Positions 9,051 through 40,619 of a stretch of 64,000 bases of DNA are shown one piece after another; within the stretch, counting starts at the first letter, position 1, and the number at the start of each line of letters is the position of its first letter. The notes below the pieces were generated by a model, which was not told where the DNA came from, ran no database searches, and saw only the letters and a list, made by a program, of their open reading frames with translations. Made by a program: the position numbers and the translations under genes. This DNA comes from Mobula birostris (lineage: Eukaryota): positions 135,001,035 through 135,065,034 of the forward strand of contig NC_092375.1 in assembly GCF_030028105.1 (NCBI RefSeq), given 5' to 3'.

Positions 9051-9057
9051 TGATATT

Positions 9058-14489: not shown

Positions 14490-16292
14490 AGGTATATTAA
14501 GAGCAAAAGGATTGTAAGGGATAAAATTGGTCCTCTTGAAGATCAGAGTGGTCGGCTATGTACAGAACCAAAGGAAATGGGGGAGATCTTAAGTAGGTTT
14601 TTTGCATCTGTATTTACTAAGGAAACTAGCATGAAGTCTATGGAATTGAGGGAATCAAGTAGTGAGATCATGGAAACTGTACAGATTGAAAAGGAGGAGG
14701 TGCATGCTGTCTTGAGGAAAATTAAAGTGGATAAATCCCCGGGACCTGACAGAGTGTTTCCTCGGACCTTGAAGGAGACTAGTGTTGAAATTGCGGGGGC
14801 CCTGGCAGAAATATTTAAAATGTCACTGTCTGCGGGTGAGGTGCCAGAGGATTGGAAAGTGGTTCATGTTGTTCCGTTGTTTAAAAAAGGATCGAAAAGT
14901 AATCCGGGAAATTATAGGCCGGTGAGTTTAACGTCAGTAGTAGGTAAGTTATTGGAGGGAGTACTAAGAGACAGAATCTACAAGCATTTGGATAGACAGG
15001 GGCTTATTAGGGAGAGTCAACATGGCTTTGTGCGTGGTAGGCCATGTTTGACCAATCTGTTGGAGTTTTTCGAGGAGGTTACCAGGAAAGTGGATGAAGG
15101 GAAGGCAGTGGATATTGTCCACATGGACTTCAGTAAGGCCTTTGACAAGGTCCCGCATGGGAGGTTAGTTAGGAAAATTCAGTCGCTAGGTATACATGGA
15201 GAGGTGGTAAATTGGATTAGACATTGGCTCGATGGAAGAAGCCAGAGAGTGGTGGTAGAGAATTGCTTCTCTGAGTGGAGGCCTGTGACTAGTGGTGTGC
15301 CACAGGGATCAGTGCTGGGTCCATTGTTATTTGTCATCTATATCAATGATCTGGATGATAATGTGGTAAATTGGATCAGCAAGTTTGCTGATGATACAAA
15401 GATTGGAGGTGTAGTAGACAGTGAGGAAGGTTTTCAGAGCCTGCAGAGGGACTTGGACCAGCTGGAAAAATGGGCTGAAAAATGGCAGATGGAGTTTAAT
15501 ACAGACAAGTGTGAGGTATTGCACGTTGGAAGGACAAACCAAGGTAGAACATACAGGGTTAATGGTAAGGCAGTGAGGAGTGCAGTAGAACAGAGGGATC
15601 TGGGAATACAGATACAAAATTCCCTAAAAGTAACGTCACAGGTAGATAGGGTCGTAAAGAGAGCTTTTGGTACATTGGCCTTTATTAATCAAAGTATTGA
15701 GTATAAGAGCTGGAATGTTATGATGAGGTTGTATAAGGCATTGGTGAGGCCAAATCTAGAGTATTGTGTTCAGTTTTGGTCACCAAATTACAGGAAGGAT
15801 ATAAATAAGGTTGAAAGAGTGCAGAGACGGTTTACAAGGATGTTGCCGGGACTTGAGAAACTCAGTTACAGAGAAAGGTTGAATAGGTTAGGACTTTATT
15901 CCCTGGAGCGTAGAAGAATGAGGGGAGATTTGATAGAGGTATATAAAATTATGATGGGTATAGATACAGTGAATGCAAGCAGGCTTTTTCCACTGAGGCA
16001 AGGGGAGAAAAAAAACCAGAGGACATGGGTTAAGGGTGAGGGGGGAAAAGTTTAAAGGGAACATTAGGAGGGGCTTCTTCACACAGAGAGTGGTGGGAGT
16101 ATGGAATGAGCTGCCAGATGAGTGGTAAATGCAGGATCTTTTTTAACATTTAAGAATAAATTGGACAGATACATGGATGGGAGGCGTATGGAGGGATATG
16201 GTCCGTGTACAGGTCAGTGGGACTAGACAGAAAATGGTTCGGCACAGCCAAGGACCAAAAGGCCTGTTTCTGTGCTGTAGTTTCTATGGTTT
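14490..16292 (+). mobile_element. 5'-truncated young CR1 LINE with ~510 open codons of ORF2 (RT)
   Basis: ORF 14454-16055 contains [33 protein letters not shown] and KFADDTK. Frameshift at the A-run near 16010; ttctatgg tail. Confidence 0.95.
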
Positions 16293-18839: not shown

Positions 18840-19084
18840 TTATTTTTTCTTTGTTATAATGAATTGACAAAGTACGTATTTAATAAGAAAGAACAGGGCT
18901 GCAGTCCCTTGAGATGAATTCAGGAAGTGCTTATCATTGACATACTGGATGATGGTTGTCACGGCTGCCATGGTTTCCTCACAGCAGGGCTGGATCTGAT
19001 CTTCGGGGAGTATGAAGTGATAGGTCGCATTGCCCCCAATCCCAAGGTCAGCTGCCCGGTCACGTGAGGTGCCAGATGTTTTAT
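18840..19084 (-). pseudogene. CPO: CPO pseudogene, last coding exon; catalytic Glu270 segment deleted
   Basis: ttttag acceptor. Translates (Y)KTSGTSRDRAADLGIGGNATYHFILPEDQIQPCCEETMAAV...NSS plus hydrophobic tail, versus human CPO [50 protein letters not shown]. Arg at CPA position 255 is the CPO hallmark. About 8 codons (PFSYTFEL) are missing. Confidence 0.9.
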
Positions 19085-19417
19085 CTAAAAGAGGGAACAT
19101 TCAGGCTGTTAGAGCAGTATTTTTCAATCCTCCATACAACGACATCACAAAGGCACTTCCATCCATCCTAACCCCAGGCCATCAATGCAGGACGTTCTCA
19201 AAGCACCGTGTCCTACCCTGGACCTAGCTTACGATAGGACATTGAAAGGATGAGAAGTGGCAGATGGCATTCAACCCAGAAAAGTATGGAGTAATTCACT
19301 TTGGAAGGTCAAATTTTAAGGCAGAATACTGGGTAAATGGTTGGATTTTTAAAAGGGTAGAGGGATGTTGTGGTTCATCTCCAATCCCTCAAAGTTGCCA
19401 CACAAATTGACAGGGTT

Positions 19418-20470
19418 AGAAACATTAAAAACCCATGGCACAGTACAGGCCCTTCAGCCCACAAAGCTATGCCGAACATAGCTAGGGTTACCCATAGCCC
19501 TCTATTTTTCTAAGCTCCATGTACCTATCCAGGAGTCTCTTAAAAGATCCTATCGTATCTGCCTCCACCACCATCACTGGCAGCCCATTCCACACACTCA
19601 CTAATCTCTGCGTTAAAAAAAACTTATGCCCAACATCTCCTCTGTACCTACTTCCAAGCACCTTAAAATTGTGCCCTCTTGTACTAGCCGTTTCAGCCCT
19701 GGGGAAAAAGCCTCTGACTATCCACATGATCAATGCCTGTCATCATCTTATACACCTCTATCAGGTCACCTCTCATCCTCCATCGCTCCAAGGAGAAAAA
19801 GCCAAGTTCACTCAACCTGTTTTCATAAGGCATGCTCCCCAATCCAGGCAACATCCTTGTAAATCTCCCCTGCACACTTTCAATGGTTTCCACATACTTC
19901 CTGTAGTAAGGCAAGCAGAACGGAGCACAGTACTCCAAGTGGGGTCTGACCAGGGTCTAATATAGCTGCAACATTACCTCTTGGCTCCTAAACTCAATCC
20001 CACGATTGATGAAGGCCGATGTACCGTATGCTTTCTTAACCACAGAGTCAACCTGCGCAGCAGCTTTGAGAATCCTATGGACTCAGACCCCAAGATCCCT
20101 CTAATCCTCCACGCTGCCAAGAGTCTTACCATTAGTGCTATATTTTGCCATCATATTTGACCTACCAAAATGAACCACCTCACACTTATCTGGGTTGAAC
20201 TCCAGCTGCCACTTCTCAGCCCAGTTTTGCATCCTATCAATGTAAACTCTGACAGCCCTCCACACTGTCCACAACACCCCCAATCTTTGTGTCATCAGCA
20301 AATTTACTAACCCATTCCTCCACTTCCTCATCCAGGTTATTTATAAAAATCACAAAGAGTAGGGGTCCCAGAACAGATCCCTGAGGCACACCACTGGTCA
20401 CCAACCTCCATGCAGAATATGACCCAACTACAACCACTCTTTGCTTTCTGTGGGCAAGCCAGTTCTAGAT
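19418..20470 (-). mobile_element. CR1 LINE 3' portion in a CPO intron
   Basis: [32 protein letters not shown]. Confidence 0.92.
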
Positions 20471-21105
20471 CCACTGTATTGTTGGAGTTACAGCACCTTA
20501 CTTTATAATATTTAATATAATGCAACAGTTATAAAGGCCTACTGTATAGAAACAAGCCCTTGGGCTCACCTATCAAACACTTCAATGCTAATCCTATATT
20601 AATCCCATGTTGCTCTTCCCACTTTCCCACCAATTCCCCTAAGTTTCTACCGTTCGCCTACATACGAGGATCAATATCCAGTAGCCAATTAACCAACAAA
20701 CCAATCTTACCAGCTGACAGAATATTTTATCAATGCCAACAATGTTATCCAATTTCCACAAGTTTCCTTTATGAAATCTGATAATCAGAAATTAATTTTT
20801 CCTACAAAGCGATATGTTAAGGCACCCACTTCTAGTTGTAGTAGCCATATTATTGGAAAACATTCACAACTGAAGTTGAAAGCAGTCAACACTTTTCCAA
20901 ACATAATGAAAGGTCAGCAGACTGAAGCATTAATTCCATCTCACTTCACTCTGCTAAGCACCCCCAGCCTTTTCTCTTTTTATTTCAGATTTCCAACATC
21001 TGTGGTTTCTTTTTTGCTGTTAGCTTACGTTAGGAGAGACCTTGGAGGGACCATTGAGAGGTATTTGCATAAATGGAAGGATTAGTAAGTAGAGATGAAA
21101 TTTAC

Positions 21106-21179
21106 AAAGAATCCATGAGGAAGTACTTGGTTCCATACTTCTGCTTCAAAGCTGTGGCTGCCATCTTTGCAACTTGCAC
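21106..21179 (-). pseudogene. CPO: CPO pseudogene exon, frameshifted (about 11 nt short)
   Basis: ttccag acceptor, gtaaat donor. Translates VQVAKMAATALKQKYGTKY (human IQVGQKAANALKAKYGTNYRVGSSADIL). Length 74 nt versus 85 expected from the human peptide. Confidence 0.88.
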
Positions 21180-22579
21180 CTGGAAAATAACAGAGCAGCA
21201 ACTCTCATTCTGAAGGACATTGCAAGAACAAACTTAAGACATCAAAACTCTCAGCACAGGTCATTTTCGTATCTTAATGGATTTCAAATTAACTGCAGTA
21301 ATTATGCAATCAACCTCATCCCTTTATTGTCCTTCTGAGTATGAGACACTAGTCTTCTTTAAATGTATCTCTCTCACACACTCACATTCCCCCACCACTC
21401 CCCCCCCCCCGGGAAGCAAGCTGCAATCTTCATGACCCCATCTCTCAAAATCTCAGTTTACACTGTGGGCAGGCTGTTAGTGCTTGGACTACGGACTACT
21501 GAGGAGACTAATACTGAGAAAACATTCTATTGGTGGCCAAGGCTTGTGCAATTGGTGAACAATTAGAGAACTGTAATCTTGTGATCAGGGCTGTGAAAAT
21601 CTGGAGACCAGTTAGGAGCAGTTTCTGGTTATTAGGTCGGAGATGTGGGTGGGGAGAGTGATTATCATCAGGAGGGGGAGGGGAAGGCAAGAGAAGTCAG
21701 CTGGGCAAGTCTTCCAGCCAGAAATGCATCATGGGGATTGAGAGTTTATTGATAGAAGTGGTGGTGTGCCAGCAAAGGAAATAAGATCACTAGACATAGC
21801 TGAATTGGGCCATTCAGCCCATTCAGTCTGTTCTATGATTCGATCAAGGCTGATTTATTTTCCCTCTCAACCCTATTCTCCTGCCTTCTTCCAACCTTTG
21901 ACACCCTTACTAATCAAGAACTCTGTTTTAAATATACGCAATTACTTGGCCTCCTGTGGCAACGAATTAATGTTGAAAAACTAATGGAAGTAGAACACAG
22001 TGCATTTCTACACCATTTTTCATGACTGCAGGATGTCTTGGAGTATTTTGCTGCCAATCATATGCATTTAACAATGCATTTGCTCTAGCACCCAATTTGC
22101 ACACAGTAAGGTCTCACAAGCAATGATTAGATGCTGTCCATGGGACTACTTCAATAGTGCTGGAGGAGAGGGAGCCCATGCCAGACTATAGTTGTCCTTT
22201 AGAGGATGCTGTACGATCTTCCTGAGAGCCAACAAGGTGGCAATGTGGTGGCAACGATGAGTTTCCTCCAGTTTCTATCTATTGAAGTGAAAACAGGCAC
22301 TGGTTCACGGTGGTGACACAGCCCTGCCGTCACCCTCTCCACTACTGAGCACATTTTCCAAGAGTGCTGCCACAAGAGAGCAGCATCTATCATGAAGGAC
22401 CCCTATCTCTCTCCCTTCTCACTACTACCATAGGGATGGAGGTACAGAAGCCTTAGGTCCCACACCACCAGCTTCAGGAACAGTTTTCACCCTACAACCA
22501 TTTAGGATCCTGAACCAATGAAGCTAACTTCACTCACCCCAACACTAAACTGACTCCACAGCCTATGAACTCACGTTCA

Positions 22580-24770
22580 CGTGTTTAAGGTAAAGGAATT
22601 ATTAGGGGCCAGTGATCATAATATGAAAGAATTCACCCTGCAATTTGAGATGGAGATGCTAAAGTCAGATGTATCAGTATTACAGTGGAGTAAAGGGAGT
22701 TACAGAGGCATGAGAGAGGAGCTGGCCAAAGTTGATTGGAAGGTGACATGTGCAGGGATGATGACAGAGCAGCAATGGCTGGAATTTCTGGGAGCAATTT
22801 GGAAGCACAGGATAGATACATCCCAAAAAAAGTATTCTAAAAGGTAGAATGATGCAACTGTGGCCAATAAGTGAAGTCAAGGCCAGCTTAAAACCAAAGA
22901 GAGGGCATGTAATAGAGCAACAATTACTGGGAAGTTAGAGGATTGGGAAACTTTAAGAAAAAACAGTAGGCAAATAAAAAAGTCATAAAGCGTGAAAAGA
23001 TGGAATATAAAGGTAATAGTCAATAATATTAAAAGGATACCAAAAGTTTCTTCAAATATATAAAGAGTAAAAGAGAGGCAATAGTAAATATCAGACCACT
23101 GGAAAACAATGCTGGAGGACAAGGAAATGGCAGAAGTGAGTGAAGTTGCCATTACCAGGAAGAAGGTGCTTGGGAAACTGAAACATCTGAAGGTAGATAA
23201 ATCACTTGGACCAGATGGTCTACACCCCAGAATTTTGAAAGAGGTGGCTGATGAGATTGTAGAGGCATTAGTAATGATCTTTCAAGAATCAGCACATTCT
23301 GGCATGGTTCCACAGGACTGGAAAATTGTAAATGTCACCCCGCTCTTCAAGAAGGGAGAGAAGCAGAAGAAAGGAAATTATAAACCAGTTAGTCTGACCT
23401 CTGTGGTTCGGAAGATGTTGGAGTCGATTGTTAAGGAAATGTTTTCAGGATAACTTGGAGGCACATGATAAAATAGGCTATTATCAACATAGTTTCCTTA
23501 AAGGAAAATCTTGCTGACAAATCTGTTGGAATTCTTTGAAGTAACAACAAGCAGGATAGACAAAGGAGAATCGGTGGATGCTATGTACTTGGAATTTCAG
23601 AAGGCCTTTGTCAAAGTGCCACACGTGAGGCTGTTAAACAGATTAAGAGCCCATGGTATTACAGGATAAATACTAGCATGGATGGGACATTAGCTGATTA
23701 GCAGGAGGCAAAGAGTGGGAATAAAGGGAGCCTTTTCTGTTTGACTGCCAGTGACTAGTAGTGTTCCACAGGGGACTGTGTTGGGATTGCTTCTTTTTAT
23801 GTTATATGCCAATGATTTGGATGATGGAATTGTTGGCTATGTGGCCATGTTTGTGAATGATAAGAAGAGAGGTGGAGGGCCAGGTAGTGTTGAGGAAGCA
23901 GAGGTGCCGCAGAAGAACTTAGACAGATTAGGAGAAGGGGCAAAGAAGTGGCAGATGGAATACAGTGTCAAGGAGTATATGATCATGCACTTTTGTTAGA
24001 AGAAATAGAAGTGTAGACTATTTTCTAAGTGGAGAGAAAATTCAAAAATCCAAAGTACAAAGTGACTTAGGAGTCCTCATGTAGGATTCCCTAAAGGTTA
24101 CTTTGCAGGCTAAGTCAGTGGTGAGAAAGGCAAATGAAATGTTGGCATTAATTTCAAGAGGACTAGAATATAAAACTAAAGATGTAATGTTGAGGCTCTA
24201 TAAAGCACTGGTAAGGCTTCACGTGGAATATTGAGAGCAGTTTTGGGCCCCTGATCTAAGAAAGGATGTGCTGGCATTGGAGAGGGTTCAGAGGACATTC
24301 ACAAGAATGATTCTGAGAATGAAAGGGCCACCACATGAGGACTGATCGATGGCTCTGATCCTATACTCACTGGAATTCAGAAGAATGAGGGAAGATCTCA
24401 TTGAAACCTATCAAAAGTTGACAGGCCTTGATAGAGGGGGTACGGAGAGGATATCTCCTATGGTGGAGGAGTCTAGGACCAGCGGGCACAGACTCAGAAT
24501 AGAGGGATGTCCATTTAGAATGAAGATGAGGAGGAATCTCCTTAACCAGAAAATGGTGAATCTGTGGAATTTGTTGCCACGGGTGACTGGAGGCCAAGTC
24601 ATTGGGTATATTTAAGGCAGAGGTTGAAGGTTTCTTGCTTAGTCAGAGCACGTAGGGTTATGGGAGTAGGCAGGAGACTGGAGCTGAGAAGGAAATGGAA
24701 TAACCGTGATGAAATGGTGGAGCAGACTTGAAAGGCCAAATGGCCTAATTCCACTCCTATATCTTACGGT
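22580..24770 (+). mobile_element. CR1 LINE ORF2, decayed
   Basis: SDHN endonuclease end, GPDGLHPRILKE, VPQGTVLG; cctatatcttacgg tail. Confidence 0.9.
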
Positions 24771-25479
24771 CCCTTCTACAATGTAGAAGATACAGTGAAT
24801 ATGTGCACAGTTGCTATGGCAGCAACTGGAATAATCTTCACCTTCAGCAATAAGAATGATGGCTATAACGATGGGAAGAAAATCAAGCTTGGCAGCTCAA
24901 CCAAAAATGACAAACCCCAGTACACAGCACACCCTCGATACTATACTGGAATGTCAATCCAGAGATCAGGCTAAGTTTAAGCACTCAAATAGCTGGAACG
25001 ATCTGGTTGAATGATGTCACAACCACAACCTTGCACTCAATGTCAACAAGACCAAAGAACCAACTATAGACTCCAGGAAGGGAAAGTTGGGAGAACACAT
25101 ACCAATCCTCATTGAGGGGTCAGCAGTAGAAAGGGTCAGCATCTTTATGTTCCTGGGCTTTATAAGGCCTTCTGTCCCATCTCACCCCAAGTGTGCTGCA
25201 CTGCCCTTCGCTGAGCCCCGTGATTCCACTGTCACCACTGACCTCTGCTGCATTGGATGTGCAAAGAGATTAGGAGACAGGAAGATAACACGATACACGC
25301 TACCAGAAGAAACCTTGATGCTGATGGCTGTGGTGGATATATAAGAGACAGCATGTTTGATCAGTCCATTAATCTTTGATTGATATAAAATAAGTTAGAA
25401 ATCATTGATAGGCAACCAAATCATCGTAAGTGCTAACTTGCAAATCAGAAGGGATAAAGGGTGAGAGAGCTCCACTTAC

Positions 25480-25570
25480 TGCACCAGTGTGCACCGAAGT
25501 TCCTGTTGAGATCAGTTCCAAAGCAGGTGCTGTTGCTGTACGGAGACATGGACTTTCTCCACAGACGATC
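25480..25570 (-). pseudogene. CPO: CPO pseudogene exon (Arg127 and Asn144-Arg145 motifs)
   Basis: ctcag acceptor, A|gtaagt donor. Translates [30 protein letters not shown] (human [30 protein letters not shown]). Confidence 0.92.
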
Positions 25571-25644
25571 CTGAGATGGAGAAGGATGTTGAACTTGTGA
25601 TTAACTCCTGCAGAATGCAACAGAGCATTTCAGATCATACTTAC

Positions 25645-25754
25645 TGTTGTCCAGGAGTAAAGGTAGCCATCGATGTTCATAACCGGTAGACATAGAATTC
25701 AATGTTTTGGAGGAAACGATCCATTTTAGGGTCTGGGGTGTAGGTCTCTAATAC
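25645..25754 (-). pseudogene. CPO: CPO pseudogene exon with 1-nt deletion and damaged acceptor
   Basis: Reads VLETYTPDPKMDRFLQNIEFYV, then a frameshift, then PVMNIDGYLYSWTT|gtaagt. Length 110 nt versus 111. The acceptor reads tcaa|GTA. A 74-nt intron separates it from the next exon. Confidence 0.9.
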
Positions 25755-25922
25755 TTGACACATACAACATAATAACAGCTTAAAGAGAGTGATTGGATAT
25801 ATTGCATGGGTAATTACTTATGGGGCTTACCTTGACTGTGACTCATATTGGACTTGCCTTGTTGATACCCAAAAGACGCATTGAGTTTCAGATGTCATTG
25901 CTTCATATTAACAATATGATAG

Positions 25923-26740
25923 TGTCACGTACCCTGTGACAGGTTAAAGAACCAGCAGAAATAGAAAACACTTTGGTATTGCTATTAGCTAATACTATTT
26001 ATTAGTAACTACACAATACAGTAATATAAATTCAGATATATCAAACACGTTAGCAAAGATTATATGTATATAACTGTGGAAATATAGAAACCAAGCTTCT
26101 TCAAGCCTAGGGGTAAATGGATACAATCTTACAGTGATGAGTAAAGTTCAGTTCAGTTCGTGGTATTCAGTTGAGGGGGGAGGGAGGAGGGGGAGGGGTT
26201 TGAGTCTTCAGGTGAGCTGATGCCATCGATCTTCCCGTTGTCCTCCGAATGTGACCACAACAAAGGGGACTGTTCTTCTGTTGTGGAATTATCAACCTAG
26301 GCGAGGGTTGGACGCATGAATAACACCCCACCAGTCACACCTTTTCCACACTGTGAGAGCCACTGATCGATTCTCCTGATCGATCCTCCAAAAACCCACC
26401 TTTCTGCGGGCATAACAAAGCTCATCCAGTGTCCAAAACCATGTGTCTGTCTGTCTACCAGCTGACCTTCTATTTATCTCACCATGCTGAACACCAGCTG
26501 TCCATCAAGTAGCTCCTCCCTTCCCTCTCTGTGGGAACACAGAAGATGCCAGTGTCCTTGCAAAAGTGTAAACACGCTGCAGAGAAACCATAACATCATC
26601 TCCAAGCAAACTGTGAGCAGTCTTTGTCTCTCTCTTAATAACAAGGTGTTTGTGTTGTACAGATCTCGCTCTCTCTCTCTCTTTCTCTTTTTAAAGGAGG
26701 CACAGTCCATAGAAAATATGACCCCTAGGGGTACATAACA
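25923..26740 (-). mobile_element. Solo LTR (818 bp) with 4-bp TSD ATAG
   Basis: TGTCACGTACCC...GGGTACATAACA terminal inverted repeat; ATAG on both flanks; minus-strand AATAAA near 26000. Confidence 0.8.
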
Positions 26741-28179
26741 ATAGCAAGCTATTCTTTCAAGTGTAAATGACTGGTCTTCACTATGGAATATGTTTACATT
26801 TCTCACCACCTCAGTAAAGTACCCAACATAATAAAAGATCCCACCCACCCTGGAAATTCTCTCTTCCGCTCCTCCCATTGAGCAGGATAGAAAACACATA
26901 TCACTGGGTTCAAGGACAGCTTCAATCCCACTTTTACATGACTATTGAATGAGCCTCTTGTATGAAAAGATGGACTCTGGATATCACAATCTACCTCATC
27001 ATGGCCTCACACCTTTGTGGAAGGGGTGGATGTAGAGAGAGTGTTTCTATAGTCAGGGAGTCTAGGAACAGAGGATACAGCTGCCTCAGAATAGAGGGAC
27101 ACCTATTTAGAACAGAGATGAGGTGGAATTTCTTTAGCCAGAGGGTAGTGAATTAGTGGAATTCATTACTAAGAAGGTTGCGTATTTGATGTATTGTTGG
27201 AGTAGACACTGCAATTGCTGCCTACACTAAATTCTGTTGGTTTTATCCTCTGCTCCCCACCCCTCTGCCTATTCGCCACTGCTTTCAGTAACACAACGAA
27301 AGCCTCAGACTCGGCACCGGGATTGTCCGACATACTGGTTTCTTGAGGAATTTGCAGGATCTAACATGAAGGGGTGGAGAATGGGTTCTCTGTACATAAC
27401 TGGAGATGAACATGACAAATATACTGGTGAGCAGAAGAAAAATGAGCAGACTCAGGGCCCTGGAATACTCGGGAAATGGAAAGACTCTCTAACATCCTGA
27501 GGGAGCGCAGAGAACTGAGCAAAACAGTGATGCACGAGGAAAAGGTGGCAATATTATGACTGAAGACTTTTAAGGCCATCAACTGTATAGAAGACAAACT
27601 GCAAATAAAAATAGAACTGAAAACATGAGTTGGAAGGAGTTCTTGAAATTGAGTCTGTAGGTCATAAGACAAGCTCAGAGTGGTGGTGTTTCAAGTAATC
27701 CATGCCGCCAGAGCAATGTCACAGCATAAGATATAGGAATAGTATTAGGCCATTTGGCCCATTGTGTCTGCTCTACCTTGGATCATGGCTGATTTACTAT
27801 CCCTCTCAACCCCTTTTTCTGCTTTCTGTAACCATTGACATCCTTACTAATCAAGAACCCATCAATCTTTCCTTTAAATATATCCGATAACTTGGTCTCC
27901 ACGGCCATTTGTGGCAATGAATTCTACAGGTTCATCACCCTCTGGCTAAAGAAATTCCTCCTCTTCTCTGTTCTAAAAGGATATCCTTATATCCTGAGTC
28001 TGTGCCTTCAGGTCTGTGACTCCCCCACTACAGAAAACACCCTTCGACAGGAGTTCAGTGATACGCGATCTCACTGCTCCCCACCCACCATGATCTCTGC
28101 AGCCCTGCGGCTCTTTGACCACGTGCTCACCCAGACCCGCCACCACAGCCATATATCCCCTCTGGGAGCTGGTCTCACC

Positions 28180-28376
28180 CAGCACTTTACCCCAATCCTT
28201 CCCCCTTTCCCAGTTTCACCTATCACCTCCCACCTCGTACTTCTTCCTCTTTTCCCCCCACCTTCTTACTCTAACTTCTCCTCTTTCTTTCCAGTCTTGA
28301 TGAAGGGTCTTGGCCCAAAACATCAACTGTCTACTCTTTTCTGCAGATGCTACCTGGCCTGCTGAGTTCCTCCAGC

Positions 28377-28438
<62 letters not shown>

Positions 28439-28480
28439 TGTATTGCTTTGGATTTCAAGCATCTGCAGACTTTTGCATGT
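28180..28480 (+). mobile_element. Penelope-derived 3' fragment with decayed hammerhead
   Basis: cagtcttgatgaagggtcttggcccaaaacatcaactg followed by the common terminal repeat. Confidence 0.75.
28379..28428. repeat. (TG)25 microsatellite
   Basis: Perfect dinucleotide run, expanded from the tgtgtgt within the host repeat. Confidence 0.97.
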
Positions 28481-29479
28481 TTCTGGGATTATGCTTAGGT
28501 GGGCACCTTGAACAAGTTGCGTCAAAGTCTAAAAATTGTACTAGGTTTATAAAGTTATTGCTACCCTTGGCTAGTCATCAATTACTAATAAATAACTTCA
28601 ATGCTAATTTACTTCATCTACTTACTCATTGTATTGCGTCTTGAAGCAGTTTGCAAACAAGGAAAAGATCCTCAAAATTAAGATACCTCCGAACCACCAG
28701 TTTATGTCACCCATGAACACGTTCCACTGGCATCTCATCAAACAGCCACAAAGAGCATTTGAAATAGTGTGCTAAGCAGACCGTATTCTTACAAACCTAT
28801 TATTAGATGTGCCCACATCCCAGATTACATTATAAATAGAGATTACAAAAGTGTATTATATGTTTATCAGTACCGTGTGGGAAAACACCTTTACTTTCCT
28901 GGGACTCAACCTTTCCTCATAAGTCGTGATCTCTAATGCAGGCAGCGTCCTGTTAAATCTCCTCTGAATCCCCTCTAAAGTTTCCATGTCTTTCCTATAA
29001 TGAGGTGATCAAAAATGAACACAATGCACCTAGTGTGGTCTCACCCCAGCTTTAGGGCTGCAGCACTACTTCATGTAGTCCGTGATCCAGTAGGGTTGGT
29101 TGGTACCATCTGAGATGAATAATGCTCAGTGATTTTTGGCAAGGTATACTTCTCTAGAGTTAGAAAATATGTGATAGCATTGCGCCAGTGGTAGCTTTGT
29201 GTGTGCTATCATGCATTTTATAACACTACCAAGTGGCCAATATAAAGTACAACGTATATATTCAACCTAGTGGTATTTTGTCATCAGTGATCCCTCAACA
29301 TTGAAATTTCTCGCAATGATAGCTGAGTTCAAGCACTTTTCATCACCTGTTGTTATAAAATTCTACGTTGAAAACTATGTCATTGATGGCACTCACAGTA
29401 CAGTGCCCAATTTAAGTAGAGTGAATCATTTCATTTTTAGAAAAATATTAGTCTGTTGTTTACTTTGGAAAAGTTAATA

Positions 29480-29730
29480 AAAAAACCCTTGCATGGTGGG
29501 AGTTGATGACTTTTGATTTCACCTTTTTTTTCCCCCACAGAAAAGGTGATACCTCAGTTCATTGACCTTAGTGGTCAATGCTTTTGGGGCATATAGGAGA
29601 CATGCAAATGCCTCCAGTTTGTCCATCAGTTCTGGGGAGAGGTCCCAGTCCTGACCCAACTCTAAGAATGTCAAGTATGCTGCTCAATTTTGGCTTCTAA
29701 AATCTTTAGTATACTTCCTTCTTCCTCTTG
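29480..29730 (-). mobile_element. Academ-like DNA transposon fragment (XPG-domain region)
   Basis: TFLELGQDWDLSPELMDKLEAFACLLYAPKALTTKVNELRYHLFC, frameshift, GEIKSHQLPPCK. This resembles the XPG-to-Cys8 region of Academ proteins. Confidence 0.65.
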
Positions 29731-29734
29731 ACTA

Positions 29735-30680
29735 TATGTTCCACCTATCTTCTCAACCATGGTTCCTTCACCATACCATCCATCCCTTGCCACAGAGGGA
29801 CAAACTTATCCAGAACCCCTCACAAGAGCTCCCTAAACAACCTCCAGATTTCTACTGTGCATTCCCCTAAGAACATCTGCTCCCGATTTATGCATCCAAG
29901 TTCCTACCTAATACCACTATATCCCTCAACTAAGTACTCTCCCATACTATCTGCTCCTATCCTCGGCCAAGGCTATGCCATCTATGTCACTGGTAGCAAT
30001 GTGTACAGGTTCTGGCTTCTCACTTTCTCCCCAAGAACGCTGTGGACTCAGTCCAAACTGTCTCTGACCCTGGCACCTGGGAGGCCACATACCATCCAGG
30101 AGTCTTGCTATTGTCCACAGAATCTCCTATCTGTTCCCCTAACCAATAAATCCCCTATCGCTGCCGCCCTCTTCTTCTGCCCAGTTCCATTTTGTACAAT
30201 AGAGCCAGTCCCAGTGCCAGTGCCAGAGACGTGACTGCTGTGGTTTTCCTCTACCAGGCCAAATCCCCCAGCCATCCACCCCCCACCCCCCGACACTATT
30301 CAAAATATTATATTTGTTATGATGGGAACACTCACATTTGTTCTCTGCACTGACTTCCTATTCCCTCTGTCTCTCCTGGCAATCTTACAGTTATCCATGT
30401 CCTGCAGCTTAGGTGAACTGCCTCCCTGTAACTGTTATCTACCAACCCCTCAGCCTCCCAAGTGATCCTGAGATCATCCAGCTCCAGCTCTCTGACATGG
30501 TCTGCAAGGAGCTGGAGCCAGATACACTTCCCACAGATGTAGTCATTAGGGACATCCCCCGCCACTGTAGGTCTCCCCGACTTCCCACATCCCACAAGGA
30601 GCACACCATTGTCTGGACTGCCGTTCCACTACTCTACTTGTGCAATAAGATGAAAAGAGATCTTACCTGTGCTTTGCCTT
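29735..30680 (-). mobile_element. CR1 ORF1/5' ORF2 fragment
   Basis: YICGKCIWLQLL zinc knuckle; AIGDLLVRGTDRRFCG esterase start. Confidence 0.8.
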
Positions 30681-31289
30681 AGCCTCCACTCACCAAATCT
30701 TCTGAAAACAAATAAATGATAACACAAAATAAAATAAAACCTTATCTTTTATACAGTCATAGAAGCATAGACCTCTACAGCACAGGAGACCTTTCAGCCC
30801 ATCTAGTTCATGTCACACTGTTTTTCAGCTTTGTCCCATGGAACTGCACCTGACCATAGCTGTCCATATCCCTCCCATCCATATCCTAATCCAAGCTTCT
30901 CTTAATTGTTGCAATCATACTCCTATCCACCACTTTACTAATGACCTACTGTATGCTTTCTCTCTGAAGCCCTTTTCTGTCACAGTACGTGGTGACAGAT
31001 GACTGAACCCTGGTGCTGAGGAACGACAAACTCCCATGTTGAGACAGAAGAAAGAATGACCGTTGTCTTTCTTAAGTATTGCTTCTTTATAATTCACGCA
31101 ATTTATATAATAAATCTGTGTACTTATAACGAGTATACCTATACCCATTCATAGCTCTAGAGCTAATTTAAAGTTTTGAAGGTAAAACAAACTACAGAAT
31201 GGTAAGTTGGCAGAGAATAAGCTACGTTAGTTGTATCACAAACAGCAGAAAATTGCTCTGGTCATGTCCGCTGAACAGTCAATCATGTG

Positions 31290-32900
31290 ATTAGGGGCAC
31301 TGCTTTTAAGGGCATTATACAAGGGGAGCATACGTTCAGTAGCTCACCGAATGAAGCAGTGATAGAAATTCACCATACCTAAAAACTCTTGTAGTAGTGC
31401 AAGGTAGTGGGAAATCCACGATAGTGGCTACTTTTGTTTGGAGAGGCCGAGAAAGTCAATGGTTGACAACCCAAACTGGCATTTAGCAGGATTAATGATA
31501 AACCTACATCGGTTTAAGTGCTCGAGAAGTGTGAAGAGATGTGATAAGTGTTTGTATTTGGATGCACTGGCAACAAGTATGTCATACAGATAAACAAAAA
31601 GAAAATCGATGTCTTTTAATACAGAGTCCATCAGCCATTGGAAAGTCTGTGCTGCATTTTTCAGTCCAAACAGCATGCGCAGAAACTCAAATAGGTCAGA
31701 TGGGGGTTATCACAGCCATTTTGAGAATGTCCTCCGAGCACACATGCACCTGTTGGGAGCCTCTAAGTCAACTTTAGAAAAATTTAACTTTCCAGCTAAA
31801 TGTGCCAAAAAGTCTTGGGTGTGTGATACAGGGTAACGATCGGGGTTGGTAATCTCATTAAGGCTTCGTTAACTGCCACACATGTGGCAACCACCATTGG
31901 ACTTGGGGACCATACGGAGGGGCAAAGCCCAGGGGCTATTCAACCTGCGTACAATGTCAAGTCTTTCCATGTTGACAAACTCAGTCTTCAGGGTTGCCAG
32001 CTTCGATGTGTCTAGTCTATGTGCACAGGCATGGACTGGCAGACCAGTTGTGGAAATGTGGTGCTCAAGCCCATGGTTTGTGACTGTAGTTGAGAATGTG
32101 GGCTTGGTGAGGTTTGGGAATTCACCCAACAGTCAGGTGAACTTACATGCAGTGGTGCATGTGCTTGACAGAGTCATTGTGGGGAACTTATTGGGGAGGT
32201 AGGGTAACAACCAAAAGTCCTTGACGTCCACAAGCCGGCAGTTCTTAAGATCAACTAGCAGTCCTGGGCACATAGAAAAACTGCACCAAGCAGAGGTCTA
32301 GCCACTTTAGCTAGGACAAAGTCCCATGTGTAATGTCACCCGCTGAAGCAGAGTGTCACCCATCATGTGCCTTAAGTCTATATCTTGCTGCCATTGGTGG
32401 CCTCCAGTGAGGTTTCGTCGCTCTTTGCTTTCTGATCAAAAGGCAACGCTGGCCACACACTCACTTGAGCACACATGTTGCCCTGAATGGGAGTTCATAA
32501 TGAGCAGTAGACGACCCTGGCAGCTGGAAACCACAGTGATCACAGTCCTCTGATGTCCCACTGCTCTGGCACAATCAAAGTTGCAAGACAGTTGGCACTT
32601 CCTAGTATTGGTGCAAAAGCGACGGTGATAAAAGCACAAACCCAGTGTAGTCTGTTTCACAGCCACGGGTGTGTGTGTGTATTGGAAGCCTTGCTGACCA
32701 GGGTTACTGAGGCTTTATTTTCATCATGCAATATTTTTCATGTTCAGATCGGTGTTCAAGCAGAGTCACCACTCTTGATCCTGTGGAACTACCGAGCAAT
32801 GCTACAAACCAAGTGATGGCATTTTGCTCCCAGAACTTCTGCAGTTTCAAAGCAACTGTGTTGGCGGACATGTTCAATAACTCTGGACTCATCCAAGAGC
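31290..32900 (-). mobile_element. Gypsy LTR-retrotransposon internal fragment (CsRn1-like gag-pro-RT)
   Basis: Gag ALKLQKFW and CFYH-x9-C-x3-C (CHCC) motif. RT HHISTTG, SPWALPL, FGLKNAAQTFQ, FVYLYDILVAS, INPAKCQFG. Confidence 0.9.
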
Positions 32901-33399
32901 ACTGCTGTATCTGGTGCTGGGAGAAAGCCACTTTTCGGTTAAGCATAGAATAGAACAGACTCTCATTTCCCTCTGATACAGCAATCTTGCCCTCAGGTCC
33001 TTAATTTTGTCCTCCAGTGACTGCACATTTGCCAACAAGGTGTTGGGTAGAGGAGCCCTCATCCCTCCTCATTTCAGCCTGGCTTGTAGCCCCCACCCCC
33101 CCCCACCCCACTCCTGTCTCACTTCCAGCCATGACAATGAATCTTCAACCTCTTAAATGTGCCGTACCTGTCAGGTCTGCTGAGTCCTTCAGACAATTGA
33201 GAGTTCTGAAGATCATTAGCTGATTTAACAGTACATTGCCTAGAGGGATGTTACTTGCTGCAGATTGCAGTGAGAGTAATTTGAAAGAGTATTTAAAAGA
33301 ATATTTGGAACTATCGTCTGCAGCCCACAGAACATCGATGATCACCAGTGCCATCTTGTCTAGTTTAGGTTCATCCAGTAATGGGCCATAGTCTATTCA

Positions 33400-34400
33400 A
33401 GAATAAAGATTCAAGATTGTCCAGTATCATTTTCAGTACACAACTGTAAAGGGGAATGAAATAGTTGTACTCTGGATCTGATGCAGCACAAAAAAAACAC
33501 AATAAATACAAATACATAAGATAGCTTATATACATAGATTGATTGTGTGTCCATGAAATGACCCCAGGCACAGGAGTGACTGTACATATGGTGATTGACA
33601 AGAATTGATTAAATAGTGGTGCTGAGGGATGTGGAGCAGTGGGTTAGTAGGTGGAGGTGTTAATCAGCCTGACTGCTTGGAGGAGTTAATAGTTATTAAG
33701 TCTTGTGGTCCTGGCCTGGGTGCCACGTAGCCTCCTCCTTGATGGGAGTGGGACAAACAGCCTATGAGCAGGGTGAGTGGGATCCTTCATGACACTACTG
33801 GCCCTCTTTCAGCCCCTTTCTCCTTACTGTACATGTCCTTGATGGCGGTTAGGCTGGTGCTGGTGACGTGTTGGGCAGTTTTGACTGCCTGTTGTAGAGC
33901 TGTCCTGTCCGCTGCAGTGCAGTTTCCGTACCGCGCAGTGATGCAGCATGTTGAATGCTCTTTACTGCACATCTGTAAAAGGACGTGAGCAGCTACGTAC
34001 GTGACATTGGTGAGTTTTTGTTCATGATGTAGGATGTGTTCTGGGAACGAGAGGTTGTGTGAGATAGGCACTTCCTGGAGATTGAAACTGCTGTGCCACC
34101 GGTGTAAAGAGAAGTGAGAGTGGTGTGAGTTCTCAATGACCATCTCCTTTCATTGAGAAAGGGGTTGTTGCCAGTCATCAGGCCTCAAGCACTGGTACCT
34201 TCCAGCCCCTGTCTGTAGACCATCTTGTTGCTGGTGATGAGCCCTACCACTGCGGTGTCATCGATGAACTTGCAATGGGCTCAACACTCAAAACCTGGGG
34301 AGGCACGCATGCTGACAATGATGGGGAGGGAGGAGCGGTTGTGCACCCGACTATCTGAGGTCTGTTGGTCGAGAAGTCCAACACCCAGTTGCACAGTGGT
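33400..34400 (-). mobile_element. Rex1/Babar LINE fragments
   Basis: CITARYGNCTAADRTALQQAVKTAQ; LCNWVLDFSTNRPQ. Confidence 0.75.
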
Positions 34401-34584
34401 GTATCTAGACCGAGGAGAAGGAGTTTGTTCCCCAAGTGGAGGGATGGGAATAAACAAAGGGTCAGTGCTCTGCTAGATACCAGCACTGAACACACAGATG
34501 TAATATATCTGGAAAACATACACAAGAGATTCTGCAGATACTGGAAATCCAGAGCAATACACACAAAATGCTGGAGGAACCGGA

Positions 34585-34882
34585 AACAAAGCCTCAAGAT
34601 TTGGGGGAGTAAATTTAGGACGGAAATGAGGAGGAACTACTTTCCCCAAAGAGTGGTGAATCTGTGGAATTCTCTGCCCAATGAAGCAGTGGAGGCTACC
34701 TCAGTAAATACATTTAAGACAAGGTTGGATAGGTGTTTGCATAGCAACGGAATTAAGGGTTATTGGGAAAAGGCAGGTAGGTGGAGATGAGTTCATGGTC
34801 AGATCAGCCGTGATCTTATTCAATGGCAGAGCAGGCTCAACAGGCCAGATGGCCTACTCCTGCTCCTATTTCTTATGTTCTT
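34585..34882 (+). mobile_element. CR1 3' end inserted into a hairpin repeat
   Basis: MRRNYFPQRVVNLWNSLP...KGY and ttcttatg tail. Flanked by the two arms of a Penelope-derived repeat. Confidence 0.8.
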
Positions 34883-35100
34883 ATGAAGGATCTCAGCCTG
34901 AAATGTCAAATGCTCCTTCACTCTGTTGATGCTGCTTTACTTGCTGACTTCCTCCAGCATTTTGGATGCATGCTTCACTATTCCACTATTACCTGTGCCA
35001 CAGGAGCAGATTGCCTTCATATGGGAAGGCAGGCAGTACATCGTCACCAGATTGCCTCAGGGGTACGTGCACAGCCCATATCACAGGCTGAGAGCGCACA

Positions 35101-37407
35101 ATCAGAATCAGGTTTATTATCACCAGCATGTGACGTGAAATTTGTTAACTGAGCAACAGTAGTTCAATACAATACATAATCTAGCAAAGAAAAATAAAAT
35201 AAATAAAAATAATAATAATCAATAAACAAGTAAATCAATTACATATATTTAATAGATTTTTTTAAAGTGCAAAAACAGAAAGGCTGTATATTAAAAAAAG
35301 TGAGGTAGTGTCCAAGGATTCAAAGTCCGTTTAGGAATCGGATGGCAGAGGAGAAGAAGCTGTTCCTGAATTGCTGAGTGTGTGCCTTCAGGCTTCTGTA
35401 CCTCCTACCTGATGGTAACAGAGAGAAAAGGGCATGCCCTGGGTGCTGGAGGTCCTTAATAATGAACACTGCTTTTCTGAGACACCACTCCCTAAAGATG
35501 TCCTGGGTACTTTATAGGCTAGTACCCAAGATGGAGCCGACTAAATTTACAACCTTCTGTAGCTTCTTTCAGTCCTGTGCAGTAGCCCCTCCATACCAGA
35601 CAGTGATGCAGCCTGTCAGAGTGCTCTCCATGGTATGATAGAAGTTTTTGAGTGAATTTGTTGACATGCCAAATCTCTTCAAACTCCTAATAAAGTATAG
35701 CCTTCTTTATAACTACATCAATATGTTGGGACCAGGTTAGATCCTCAGATCTTGACACCCAAGAACTTGAAGCTGCTCACTCTCTCCACTTCTGATCCCT
35801 CTATGAGGATTGGTAGGTGTTCCTTCGTTTTACCCTTCCTGAAGTCCACAATCAGCTCGTTCATCTTACCGACGTTGAGTGCCAGGTTGTTGCTGCGGCA
35901 CCACTCCACAAGTTGGCATATCTCACTCCTGTACGCCCACTCATCACCACCAGTGATTCTACCAACAATGATTGTATCATCAGCAAATTTATAGATAGTA
36001 TTTGAGCTATGCCTAGCCTCACAGTCATGTGTATATAGAGAGTAGAGCAGTGGGTTAAGCACACACCCCTGAGGTGCACCAGTGTTGATCGTCAGCGAAG
36101 AGTATATGTTATCAGCAATCTGCAAAGATTGTGGTCTTCTGGTTAGGAAGTCGAGGATTCAATTGCAGAGGGAGGTAAAGAGGCCCAGGTTCTCTCAAAC
36201 AGGATTGTGGGAATGATGGTGTTAAATGCCGAGCTATAGTCGATGAACAGCACCCTGACGTAGATATTTGTGTTGTCCAGGTGGTCTAAAGCTGTGTGGA
36301 GAGCCATTGAGGTTGCCTCTGCCGTTGACCTATTGTGGTGATAGGCAAATTGCAATGGGTCCAGGTCCTTGCTGAGGCAGGAGTTCAGTCTAGTCATGAC
36401 TAACCCCTCAAAGCATTTCATCACTGTCGATGTGAGTGCTACCGGGTGAGTCATTAAGGCAGCCCACATTATTCTTCTTAGGCACTGGTATGATTGATGC
36501 CTTTTTGAAGCAAGTGGGAACTTCCACCCGGAGCAGTGAGAGATTGAAAATGTCCTTGAATATTCCCGCTAGTTGATTGGCACAGGTTTTCAGAGCCTTA
36601 CCAGGTACTCCACTGGGACCTTCTACCTTGCGAAGGTTCACTCTCTTTAAAGACAGCCTAACATCAGCCTCTGAGACAGAGAGCACAGGGTAATCAGGTG
36701 CAGCAGGGATCTTCACAGCTGTAGTTGTCTTCTCCCTTTCAAAGCGTGCATCGAGAGCATTGAGTTCATCTGGTAGTGAAGCATCGCAGCCATTCATGCT
36801 ATTGGGTTTCGCTTTGTAGGAAGTAATGTCTTGCAGACCCTGCCGGGGTTGCCGTGTATCCGATGTCACCTCCAACCTCATTCGAAATTGTCTCTTCACG
36901 CTTGAAATAGCCCTCTGCTGTGTGGGCCGGCTGGTGGCACGACATTGGCACCGGACCCGGGAGCAGAGGTTCCCGGGTTCGAAACTAGTCAGGTCTGCTC
37001 CCAAGTACACTTTCCATCCGTGCCGGGTTGAGTGTCAAGATTGCAACTCGCCCTCGTAAAATAAAGGGAAAATACTGTGAAAATGTCTGAGGAGTGACAC
37101 GCCACACAGTCTCTCTCTCGCTCCGCGCCTTGTAAAAAGCCATGAAAAAGACAATCACAGACGCGCAGACACACACGCCAAAACAAAAATTAAGGATGAC
37201 TGAAATGATTAAAGAATTATATATAAAAGAAGAAATAGCCCTCTGCAAATCATTCCTCATTTTCTGGTACAAGCCTGGGTTGCCAGACTTGAATGCCACA
37301 GATCTAGCCTTCAGCAGATGACGTAGCTCCTGGGTCATCCACAGCTTTTGGTTTGGGAATGTACAGTAAGTCTTTCTGGGCACACACTCATCCACACAGG
37401 TTTTAAT
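35101..37407 (-). mobile_element. Rex1/Babar LINE (5'-truncated)
   Basis: [32 protein letters not shown]; (TCTGAT)-type tail. Confidence 0.95.
36919..37231 (+). mobile_element. Young tRNA-derived SINE with 15-bp TSD
   Basis: TSD gaaatagccctctgc at 36904-36918 and 37232-37246. A box tggcacgacattgg, B box gggttcgaaac; CpG-rich; A-rich tail. Confidence 0.85.
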
Positions 37408-37504
37408 GAACACTGCTGTTGAATCTCCCAGTATCCAGGTAGTCTACTGTAACGATGACAACTGACTAAGAGGACCCAATGGAGAGGAGGTAGCTGAGGC
37501 CCTG

Positions 37505-37865
37505 TGTGTGCTGGTAAGCTACATGCAAAGCCACACTCTGGAGAAGTTGGAGCCCAGTGACTGTGAATCTGGGAGCCTGGAGGAGGCCTGTACTGTGCTG
37601 TACGTGCGTGGCTGGATGGCGGAGACTGAGGACAGGGCTTGCTTTGCTGTTGTTTTGCTGCTTGCTGAGTTGTTTTGCCGTGTTGTGCCGTGTGTTCTTC
37701 CGCCAAGCATCGTGGGCATGATATGTTGGTACCACAACATGTGGTGATTTGCAGATTGCCCCTAGCACATCCTTAGGTTGTGACTGGCTGGACGTTAGTG
37801 CAAAAGATGCATTTCACTTCACGTTTCAATATATATGCGATAAACAAAATGAACCTGAGTCAGAA
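37505..37865 (+). mobile_element. SINE-like repeat interrupting ERV pol
   Basis: Same family as the antisense copies at 2310-2500, 12485-12780 and 49840-50010; aatgaacctgagtcaga tail. Confidence 0.6.
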
Positions 37866-38937
37866 TGTGGAGGATTGAGGACGGACGGCTAACCCACAGA
37901 TGGTACTAGGATCGAGTCAGTTTTCGGAAATCCTGTGTGAATCAGGAGATCAAGTGATCCCAGATGAAGTACAAAATAATATTGTTCTAATGGTTCCTCC
38001 AGCCAATAAGCAAGAGACACAACGGCTTGTGGGCCTATTGGGCTACTGGAGGTGGCACATAGCGTACCTAACTGTCCTGTTCGAACCCTGACATAAAGTA
38101 ACTATAAAAAAAAGGCAGCTTTTGAATGGGGTTGAGCCATAGCAAGCATTTAAGGTTGCCAAGGAAGCAGTGGCTCAGGCCCTGTCCTTGGGCCTTCATT
38201 TCCTCAGGCTGCCATTATGGGTGTCCGTGTACATCAGGGCACCTCTGTGTGGAGTCTATGGCAGAAAGTAAAAGGAGCAAACAGTCCCCGAGGGGTTTGG
38301 TTCCACACTCTTTGAAAGACAGTTGCTAGGTTGCTGTGGGCAAAACGAGAGCAAATCCAGAAATCCAAGGTGCAAAGGGACTTGGGCGTCTTTGTGCAGG
38401 ATTTCCCCACTTAGTTGCACTACTGCAAGAGGTTGTGTTGGTGTGGGATACAACATTGTGATGTGAAGGATTGAGGAAAGCATTGTGGCAATGACACCTT
38501 CCTGGAGATGTGAGAGACTGAAGATCCTGGACCCTGGGGTGAAAAAAATACAGACTGCTGGAGGAACTTGGGGTGTTAGGCAGCATCTGCAGAGGCAAAA
38601 AGATGGCCAACGTTTCAGGTCAATTTGCTTCATGGGGACTGAGAGGAGGAAGGAAAGGTGGCCAATATAAAGAGGAGAGAAGGAGTGAAGAGTGGGGAGA
38701 TAGGGCTGGCAGATGAAGCAAGTGAAGTTGAGGATAATGTTCAGGTGAGTTCAGGGGAGCTTTTTTTGTTTAGGATAAGATCAAGGTCTGGGCAGATGAC
38801 AGTATTAGTGGAGGGAACTGAGTGTTTCTTTGTTCCACAAAGTGTTGGATGTGCTAAGACCTTTCTGATGGGTGATAGAGGTATATAACGACTGGACAAG
38901 GCCTTATCTGGCACTGGTCCTTGTCAGCAATGGGTCA

Positions 38938-39240
38938 AAATCAGAATCAGTTTTAATATCACTGGCATATGCTGTGAAATTTAATGTTTTGCAGCAGCAG
39001 TGAAGTGCAATACATAATAAAAAAATATAAATTGCAATAAAAATATATATATATAAAAATAAATTACATAAGTAGTGCAGAAAGTACTGAGGCAGTGTTC
39101 ATGGGTTCATTGTCCATTCAGAAATCTGATGGTGAAGGGGAAGAAGCTGTTTCTAAAATGTTGAGTGTGTGTCTTCAGGCTCCTGCACCTCCTCTTTGAT
39201 GGTGGTAATAAGAAAAGTGCACGTCCTAGGTGATAGGAAT
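38938..39240 (-). mobile_element. Rex1/Babar 3' fragment
   Basis: FRNSFFPFTIRFLN and tail. Confidence 0.8.
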
Positions 39241-40092
39241 CTGTTTTAGATCCAATGGTTAATATCAGGACATGCAGCCTGGTTCCAGTGTAGGATGGAG
39301 ACGAGATTTTGTGGACTGTCAAACTGGTGTCCTTGCTATTGGATCCCTTGGCCACTACTCTATCTCATTGGCCTAAGTTAGGAATCATTTCCTATTTCAG
39401 TGTTTGTCTAAATGTCTCACAGTATCTGATTGCACCACCACCTCTGGCAACAAGTTCTATATATCAGCTGTTCTCTGTGTAAGAAGACCTATCCTGTCAG
39501 ATCCTCTGTTCTATGCCCCGCAACTGTGTGCATATTTACTTTTGCCCAGCGTCCAGCTGCACGCCTACCCCTCAGGAGTGTCACACTGCAGTGCTATCCA
39601 TCCTTCCAGAATCGACGAGCTCAAACGGGAATCTGATCATTACCATTGCCTAGGAAACTTTGTTGCCATACTTTGTAACAATCTTGTTAAACTGAGGTAT
39701 TGTTCTTTACTTTTGTGTCAGAAGGTCATGTGTTCAGAGACCCTTCCAGAGCCATTGAAAGAAACCTAGTCCCAACAGAGGGTACTTCGCTGTCTGGGGT
39801 GTCTACTTGTAAGTGAGAACCTATTTCAAAGCCCTAGCTGCTCTCTCAGATTGATAAATAAATATCTATGATAGTATAGCAAAATGCAACAGAGATACCA
39901 CCTGATGATATTGATAACCTATATGGTCTGCCCTGCTCAATACTTACTCCTGATATTGATGACCAAAATGATGTTCTTTGAACAATATTGACTTCTCATT
40001 CAAAATTACTGATAAATTATTTATCTGGTCATCATCACATTATCAGTTCATGGAGCTTGCTGTTACCTTTTCCCCTTCTTTACCTGTGTTAA

Positions 40093-40400
40093 AGCAGCCC
40101 AGTAGCGTAGTGGTTAGTGCACCACTATTACAGAGCCAGTGACCCTTGGTGAGGGGTTCAATTCCTGCAAGGAATGTGTGTGTTCTCCCGGTGATCACGT
40201 GGGCTTCCTCTGGGCACTCTGCTTTCCTCCCACATTCTAAAGATGCATGGTTAAGGTTAAAGACACACAATGTAGGTGCTGTGGTAACACTTGCAGGCTG
40301 CCCAGCAACACCACCACTGATTTGGTTTGATAGAAACAGCGCACGTCACTATGTGTTACAATGTTTTAATGCACTTATAGCAAATAAAGCAAACATTTAA
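40093..40400 (+). mobile_element. tRNA-derived V-SINE
   Basis: A box tagcgtagtgg, B box ggttcaattcc, V-domain gtgggcttcctctgggcactctgctttcctcccaca. Confidence 0.8.
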
Positions 40401-40539
40401 AATTGCTTTACAGAGAAAATTCATTTTCTGTATAATGTTTCATGATATTCTGAAGGACAGTAGACAGATGTAAATCTTTCTTTCTCTTAAGTTACTGATG
40501 GATATTATCAATAATAAGAGTAACATTGGAATCACTTAC

Positions 40540-40619
40540 CCATTGTATTCAGTCCTGGAACTGTGAAGGAACAAGAGGAATATGTGCAGAAGAGGGATGT
40601 ATTTTAACCACCTCTTCAT
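40540..40619 (-). pseudogene. CPO: probable CPO exon 1 (signal peptide)
   Basis: ATG...GG|gtaagtg encoding MKRWLKYIPLLHIFLLFLHSSRTEYNG: basic N-terminus, hydrophobic core, and a phase-2 end in aromatic-x-Gly as in M14A exon 1. Same strand as, and upstream of, the other CPO exons. Confidence 0.55.

Follow-up and report, generated by a model that had tools for sequence, protein, structure and literature searches.

We examined a 64,000-nt stretch of the Mobula birostris genome (contig NC_092375.1, positions 135,001,035 to 135,065,034; hereafter the window), in which remnants of a carboxypeptidase O (CPO) gene lie on the minus strand beside FASTKD2. An initial annotation had described four CPO-like exons there. 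How much of the gene survives, and could it still encode an enzyme? Intact shark CPO, which comprises 11 exons including those of a prodomain, was divided into 11 exon-sized blocks, and both strands were scanned with a frameshift-tolerant profile of mixed elasmobranch sequences. The block boundaries are those usual for M14A genes; they agree with the splice sites seen. Eight shuffled or reversed windows served as the null (maxima of 33–43). Six exon remnants rose above it: exon 1, present twice, and exons 7, 8, 10 and 11, i.e., 5 of the 11 ancestral exons (Table 1). The four exons first described are real, and the count is now six. The end of the span was also revised: position 18840 belongs to the stop of a shifted frame, and the original stop ends at 18854.

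Table 1. Remnants of CPO and coding exons of FASTKD2 in the window
Feature	Position	Strand	Score or E value	Null maximum	Remark
CPO exon 1, copy A (signal peptide)	40540..40619	-	profile score 67	34	
CPO exon 1, copy B (signal peptide)	28626..28714	-	profile score 62	34	
CPO exon 7	25645..25754	-	profile score 161	43	
CPO exon 8	25480..25570	-	profile score 153		frame and splice sites intact
CPO exon 10	21106..21179	-	profile score 53-56	33-37	
CPO exon 11 (last)	18854..19084	-	profile score 211		
FASTKD2 coding exons	166-329, 2006-2227, 4926-5013, 6190-6304, 11017-11094	+	Pfam FAST_1, E 1.2e-11		

Exons 7 and 8 are identical to Heptranchias CPO at 30 of 36 and 27 of 30 residues, respectively; exon 8 is clean and is separated from exon 7 by a 74-nt intron. 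Exon 10, which is 74 nt long, shares 17 of 24 residues with Narcine CPO. Exon 7 measures 110 nt (111 in sharks) and contains a 1-nt deletion near 25689/25688; its acceptor reads AA in place of AG. The frame of exon 10 is shifted by an 11-nt deletion at 21123/21122, and exon 11 carries an in-frame 24-nt deletion near 19037-19035. All of these lesions had been proposed in the initial annotation (the two deletions in exons 10 and 11 as approximate lengths), and all were confirmed. Exon 11 has a further lesion: a 17-nt deletion at 18893/18892 causes a frameshift in the C-terminal tail, which, like both copies of exon 1, is homologous to CPO by alignment and corresponds to the putative glycosylphosphatidylinositol (GPI) signal.

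Residues are numbered as in CPA. Arg255, a residue by which CPO is recognized (PMC9925722) and whose presence had been noted before, is kept in exon 11 (codon 19064-19062) and aligns with the Arg of human CPO; Trp257 is replaced by Arg. The carboxylate-binding residues R127, N144 and R145 are kept in exon 8, in which a Cys that is invariant across 8 intact orthologs has become Tyr. A loss of the catalytic R127 was considered and rejected: elasmobranch CPO normally has a Met three positions past R127, and this is the Met seen in exon 8. According to the alignment, the general base, Glu270, falls inside the 24-nt deletion of exon 11. The list of catalytic residues that includes Glu270 is that of PMC9925722. 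Of the residues that are invariant in the 8 intact orthologs, 13 of 89 are changed in the window; the same test on a pair of intact batoids gave 7 of 185 (Fisher p=0.002). This missense level fits substitution of about 4–10% per site, and by this measure the constraint on the surviving CPO exons is relaxed.

Exons 2–6 and 9 gave no signal above the null on either strand anywhere in the window. With a profile of type-2 CPO (a second kind of elasmobranch CPO, defined below), none of the six was clearly above the null on either strand: four plus-strand scores exceeded the null maximum and one minus-strand score equaled it, the excess amounting to 3 points at most. The exons for the prodomain and for the zinc ligands all fall among those missing; with exons 6 and 9 absent, H69, E72 and H196 have no counterpart in the window. 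Would decayed copies of these exons have been noticed? Simulated decayed skate exons were scored against a shark-only profile in 60 trials each at three settings. After 6% substitution and a 1-nt deletion, each of the six exons was detected in 60/60 trials, and after 15% substitution and an 11-nt deletion, exons 3, 5, 6 and 9 were detected in 59–60 of 60. For exons 6 and 9, the rate was 60/60 at every setting. Because simulated decayed copies were nearly always detected, we conclude that the zinc-ligand exons are truly absent within the window. The power was weaker for exons 2 and 4 (39 and 44 of 60 at the harshest setting), which detracts from the case for their absence.

The disabling lesions thus total four deletions, one dead acceptor and six missing exons. 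Since Glu270 is deleted and the window lacks the exons for the zinc ligands and the prodomain, this locus can no longer give rise to an active M14A enzyme. Splice sites and the 74-nt intron between exons 7 and 8 remain at this FASTKD2-linked locus, which is not a retrocopy. With these lesions and the relaxed constraint, the call of a pseudogene is stronger than when it was first made.

To which carboxypeptidase do the remnants belong? Among solved structures, human CPO (5mrv) was the first match for exon 8 (E 2.6e-12, followed by CPB2 at 7.4e-8) and for exon 11 (E 1.8e-8 with an 8-residue gap, followed by CPB at 9.3e-6). A protein search with exon 11 returned 15 matches from sharks, rays and amphibians, all of them CPO or CPO-like if five hypothetical M14 models are counted with the 10 named as such. 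In trees that contained no CPA or CPB outgroup, the surviving 3' exons grouped with the Arg255 CPO of batoids (support 95/95). These comparisons support descent from CPO, and not from CPA, CPB or CPB2. Both the identity of the gene and its FASTKD2 neighbor, as initially annotated, have held up; the two stop codons are 7.8 kb apart.

The presence of two signal-peptide exons raises another question: does the span hold one gene or two? Elasmobranch CPO is of two kinds. Most proteins have Arg255 (type 1), and others have Cys or Phe at this position (type 2: Pristis P0002, Chiloscyllium P0020 and Pristiophorus P0074, from sawfish, bamboo sharks and a sawshark). We found no report of this second lineage in the literature searched, which was mostly open-access. 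In a tree on exons 10–11 without Xenopus, Cebus, Columba and Mauremys, the type-2 proteins formed a group with 99/98 support, and the Arg255 batoids with which the window grouped were Narcine and Rhinoraja; the 3' end of exon 10 is type-1 in kind. Both copies of exon 1 have a phase-2 GTAAGT donor, intact in copy B, and copy A has an ATG. The best match of copy A is the Pristis type-2 protein (score 82, 15/26 residues identical), and that of copy B is the type-1 protein of Rhinoraja (score 83, 14/26 identical). Each copy is therefore nearer to the gene of another species than to the other copy, with which it scores 50 (47/80 nt, or 59%, identical). A 301-nt alignment of the two copies scored 66, which was reached by 0 of 1000 random windows, chosen so as not to overlap either copy. 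In the Chiloscyllium punctatum model P0001, a type-2 last exon is fused to type-1 exons 7–11, an order that matches the one proposed here; this model, probably a chimera produced by annotation, would preserve the order of the tandem pair. Duplicates of CPO are described as always lying in tandem (PMC9925722).

From these comparisons, the span probably represents two dead tandem CPO paralogs rather than one gene. Copy A of exon 1 is probably the sole remnant of an upstream type-2 (Cys/Phe255) paralog, and copy B the probable first exon of the type-1 (Arg255) gene. The initial annotation had assumed a single syntenic CPO; FASTKD2 does mark this as the CPO locus, which now probably comprises two tandem paralogs. 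Several observations argue against this assignment. The 5' and intron flanks of copies A and B, taken alone, are not significantly alike (80 and 123 of 1000 nulls reached their score). When the tree is restricted to exon 11, with Mustelus also left out, the type-2 group is left with 85/95 support, and no placement is obtained for the window. The 5' half of exon 11 mixes type-1 and type-2 residues, and the first exons were assigned from 26 residues, with one type-2 first exon for reference. With so few informative residues, and with no 3' exon of a second gene clearly above the null, on either strand, between 28714 and 40540, could this be one dead gene that had two alternative first exons? We think this unlikely: at 59% DNA identity, the copies are far older than the decay of about 5%; their closest relatives in other rays are two different paralogs; and a system of two paralogs exists in elasmobranchs. 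As a separate observation, the CPO proteins of Scyliorhinus (P0005, P0009) have Gln255.

The question of whether Mobula retains CPO elsewhere was addressed with a full-length Heptranchias CPO query against a protein database clustered at 90% identity (proteins of 249–793 residues were searched); the best 120 of 1255 matches were examined. No protein among these 120 was named as CPO from Mobula, Hypanus or another stingray, nor was a Mobula or Hypanus CPO among the 15 matches to exon 11. As a positive control, the same database includes the FASTKD2 of both Mobula and Hypanus. The 120 did include CPO from Heptranchias, Pristiophorus (two), Heterodontus, Cetorhinus, Rhincodon, Scyliorhinus, Mustelus and Chiloscyllium, and, among batoids, from Rhinoraja, Narcine and Pristis, the batoid scores being 655–830 bits and that of the 120th match 514. 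A Mobula protein is unlikely to be hiding in a 90% cluster, because CPO of different batoid orders is only 72–78% identical. On the basis of its absence from the protein database, the Mobula lineage has probably lost CPO.

Three considerations temper this conclusion. Absence from a database is no proof of loss; Pristis type-1 CPO and any Callorhinchus CPO are also absent from the best 120 of the 1255 matches; and a further copy could sit upstream, outside the window, at a distance of more than 23 kb from exon 1A. The gene loss initially proposed is supported by the broken locus and by protein searches that returned no Mobula CPO, and for a lineage-wide loss the sole evidence is absence from the database. 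The missing CPO of Callorhinchus, a chimaera, and of the Arg255 type in Pristis may represent further losses or gaps in annotation.

Taking the locus and the searches together, we consider it likely that the FASTKD2-linked CPO locus is dead and eroding, that it contained two tandem paralogs, both now dead, and that the ray has probably lost the enzyme. Ancestral elasmobranchs would have carried a tandem pair of CPO genes, each of 11 exons and with a prodomain: type 1 with Arg255, from which specificity for acidic residues is predicted, and type 2 with Cys or Phe255. Each of the two signal-peptide exons would have opened one of these genes, with type 2 preceding type 1, and of type 2 nothing past exon 1 would be left. 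Presumably, selection was relaxed and one lesion became fixed; most exons would then have gone in large deletions, and retroelements would have moved into the space left. The activity probably lost in the ray would be a non-essential one, that of a GPI-anchored brush-border enzyme trimming C-terminal Glu and Asp. CPO is described as a GPI-anchored dietary peptidase of the enterocyte surface, complementary to CPA and CPB, that releases acidic residues from C termini (PMC6214572), and as non-essential, pseudogenized in many rodents and often tandemly duplicated (PMC9925722).

The remnants could instead be dead duplicates only, with a working Mobula CPO located elsewhere, for example as a third tandem copy. 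CPO often occurs in two to five tandem copies (PMC9925722), and the window reaches 23 kb past exon 1A on its upstream side. We find this quite doubtful: an intact copy would be expected at 655–830 bits, near the top of the matches, and none was among the best 120 of 1255; for it to be clustered under the CPO of another order, 90% identity would be needed, against the 72–78% observed.

When might the loss of both paralogs have occurred? Mobula and Hypanus FASTKD2 are 89% identical (608/680), and the decay of about 4–10% per site overlaps the expectation from this divergence. With this overlap, the decay fits a loss before the Mobula-Hypanus split as well as one after it. A bolder proposal, which we offer tentatively and which may well be wrong, starts from a gene pair so far undescribed: two ancient, prodomain-bearing CPOs whose specificity pockets differ (Arg255 and Cys/Phe255), inherited by sharks and rays. 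Both would have disappeared in a single loss, in the ancestor that stingrays and mantas share. If there was such a single ancestral loss, the whole of Myliobatiformes would be without this gut peptidase, whatever the diet.

Could diet be the cause? Mobula is a filter feeder, as are the whale shark and the basking shark. Given that CPO is a dietary peptidase (PMC6214572), its loss could be an adaptation to, or a consequence of, feeding on plankton. Filter feeding is a poor explanation because the whale shark (P0017) and the basking shark (P0016) keep full-length CPO with all catalytic residues, and the bottom-feeding stingray Hypanus is likewise without CPO among the best 120 of 1255 matches; we regard a dietary cause as improbable. 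It is more improbable again that the lesions are assembly or consensus errors in an intact gene. The 1-nt deletion on its own would be suspect. It is accompanied by the 11-, 17- and 24-nt deletions, the splice change and the excess of missense changes, six exons are missing from sequence that is free of N, and FASTKD2, from the same stretch, matches at all 221 of 221 residues. Scarcely credible is an origin from another M14A subfamily (CPB1, CPB2 or CPA): CPB and CPB2 are the second-best structures (E 9e-6 and 7e-8), and the E value of CPO is better by three to four orders of magnitude in each search, exons 7–8 are 83–90% identical to the closest shark CPO, and Arg255, the GPI-type tail and the adjacency of FASTKD2 all speak for CPO.

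The dead CPO locus of Mobula has a counterpart in rodents, in which Cpo is a unitary pseudogene (PMC3580494, PMC9925722): the same gene, in a FASTKD2 neighborhood, bears frameshifts and went unannotated. The ray case differs in being independent and in a cartilaginous fish, in the deletion of most exons, in the probable loss of two paralogs, and in an ancestral gene that had a prodomain. The locus is a well-supported pseudogene and a probable new and independent loss of a dispensable gut peptidase, of the kind known from rodents. Such a loss is not very surprising, given that CPO is already on record as dispensable and as readily duplicated or lost. The closest structural relative by sequence, human CPO (5mrv), has Arg255, R127, N144, R145 and, by alignment, a GPI-type tail in common with the ray locus, which, by contrast, has no zinc ligands, no Glu270 and broken frames. 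Human CPO is reported to be without a prodomain (PMC6214572), whereas the PF02244 activation prodomain is found in most shark, ray, amphibian and bird CPO models among the matches listed; from this distribution, its loss in human CPO looks derived. The direct orthologs of the window's exons are the intact type-1 proteins of Narcine (P0003), Rhinoraja (P0004) and Heptranchias (P0007), which have an open frame and all catalytic residues, unlike the window with its 5 of 11 exons. Tandem arrays with an altered residue 255 are also described from Xenopus and teleosts, in which Cys255 or Gln255 paralogs and gene conversion occur (PMC9925722). The elasmobranch type-2 lineage, in contrast, spans sharks and rays, and here both copies probably died rather than diversified.

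The searched literature, which was mostly open-access, yielded no account of CPO being lost or duplicated in sharks or rays; the supplementary trees of PMC9925722 might include cartilaginous fish. If our interpretation is correct, this is a second independent loss of CPO in vertebrates, besides that in rodents, in a group for which few digestive-gene losses have been catalogued. It would constitute a natural knockout for the role of CPO in dietary protein digestion or lipid handling, and shared lesions could mark relationships among stingray families. The findings also suggest that elasmobranchs possess a second CPO paralog, in which residue 255 is polar or aromatic.

The remainder of the window, which has no N and a G+C content of about 43%, was also inspected. 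At its left end, the last five coding exons of FASTKD2 are all intact. When spliced, they are identical to the Mobula birostris protein at every one of 221 residues and to that of Hypanus sabinus at 199 of 221; a protein search with one of these exons returned just two proteins, from the same two species. FASTKD2 (166-11094, its stop at 11094) is convergent, tail to tail, with the CPO remnants (18854-40619). Human FASTKD2 and CPO probably lie on the same strand, which would imply a local inversion here. The two genes are adjacent in mammals; the mouse Cpo pseudogene is placed between Fastkd2 and Klf7, with Fastkd2 described as downstream of it (PMC3580494).

At least 20,980 of the 64,000 bases of the window are repeated within it. 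An Rfam search gave 0 matches. Fifteen long open reading frames were tested, of which five match a Pfam family of reverse transcriptases, and a sixth matches one of endonucleases. Two broken segments, 34902-35135 and 37879-38088 (+), have a LINE piece between them and are presumably retrovirus-like reverse transcriptase, an unconfirmed label based on their motifs; neither has a Pfam match, and 37879-38088 has no PDB match. Similarly, 53709-54038 and 55831-56343 (-), which are split by a LINE piece and have no Pfam match, resemble, by their motifs, a hAT-type DNA transposase. Between the two copies of exon 1 lies a Pfam RVT_1 fragment (31428-32132, -; E 9.7e-15) that, by its motif, is probably Gypsy-type. 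A near full-length LINE, probably CR1-type, occupies 59793-63227 (+) and comprises a GDSL/SGNH esterase ORF1, an endonuclease and a reverse transcriptase. Finally, a LINE reverse-transcriptase frame at 14451-16055 (+) is open over 534 codons (E 5e-36), which suggests a young insertion between FASTKD2 and CPO.

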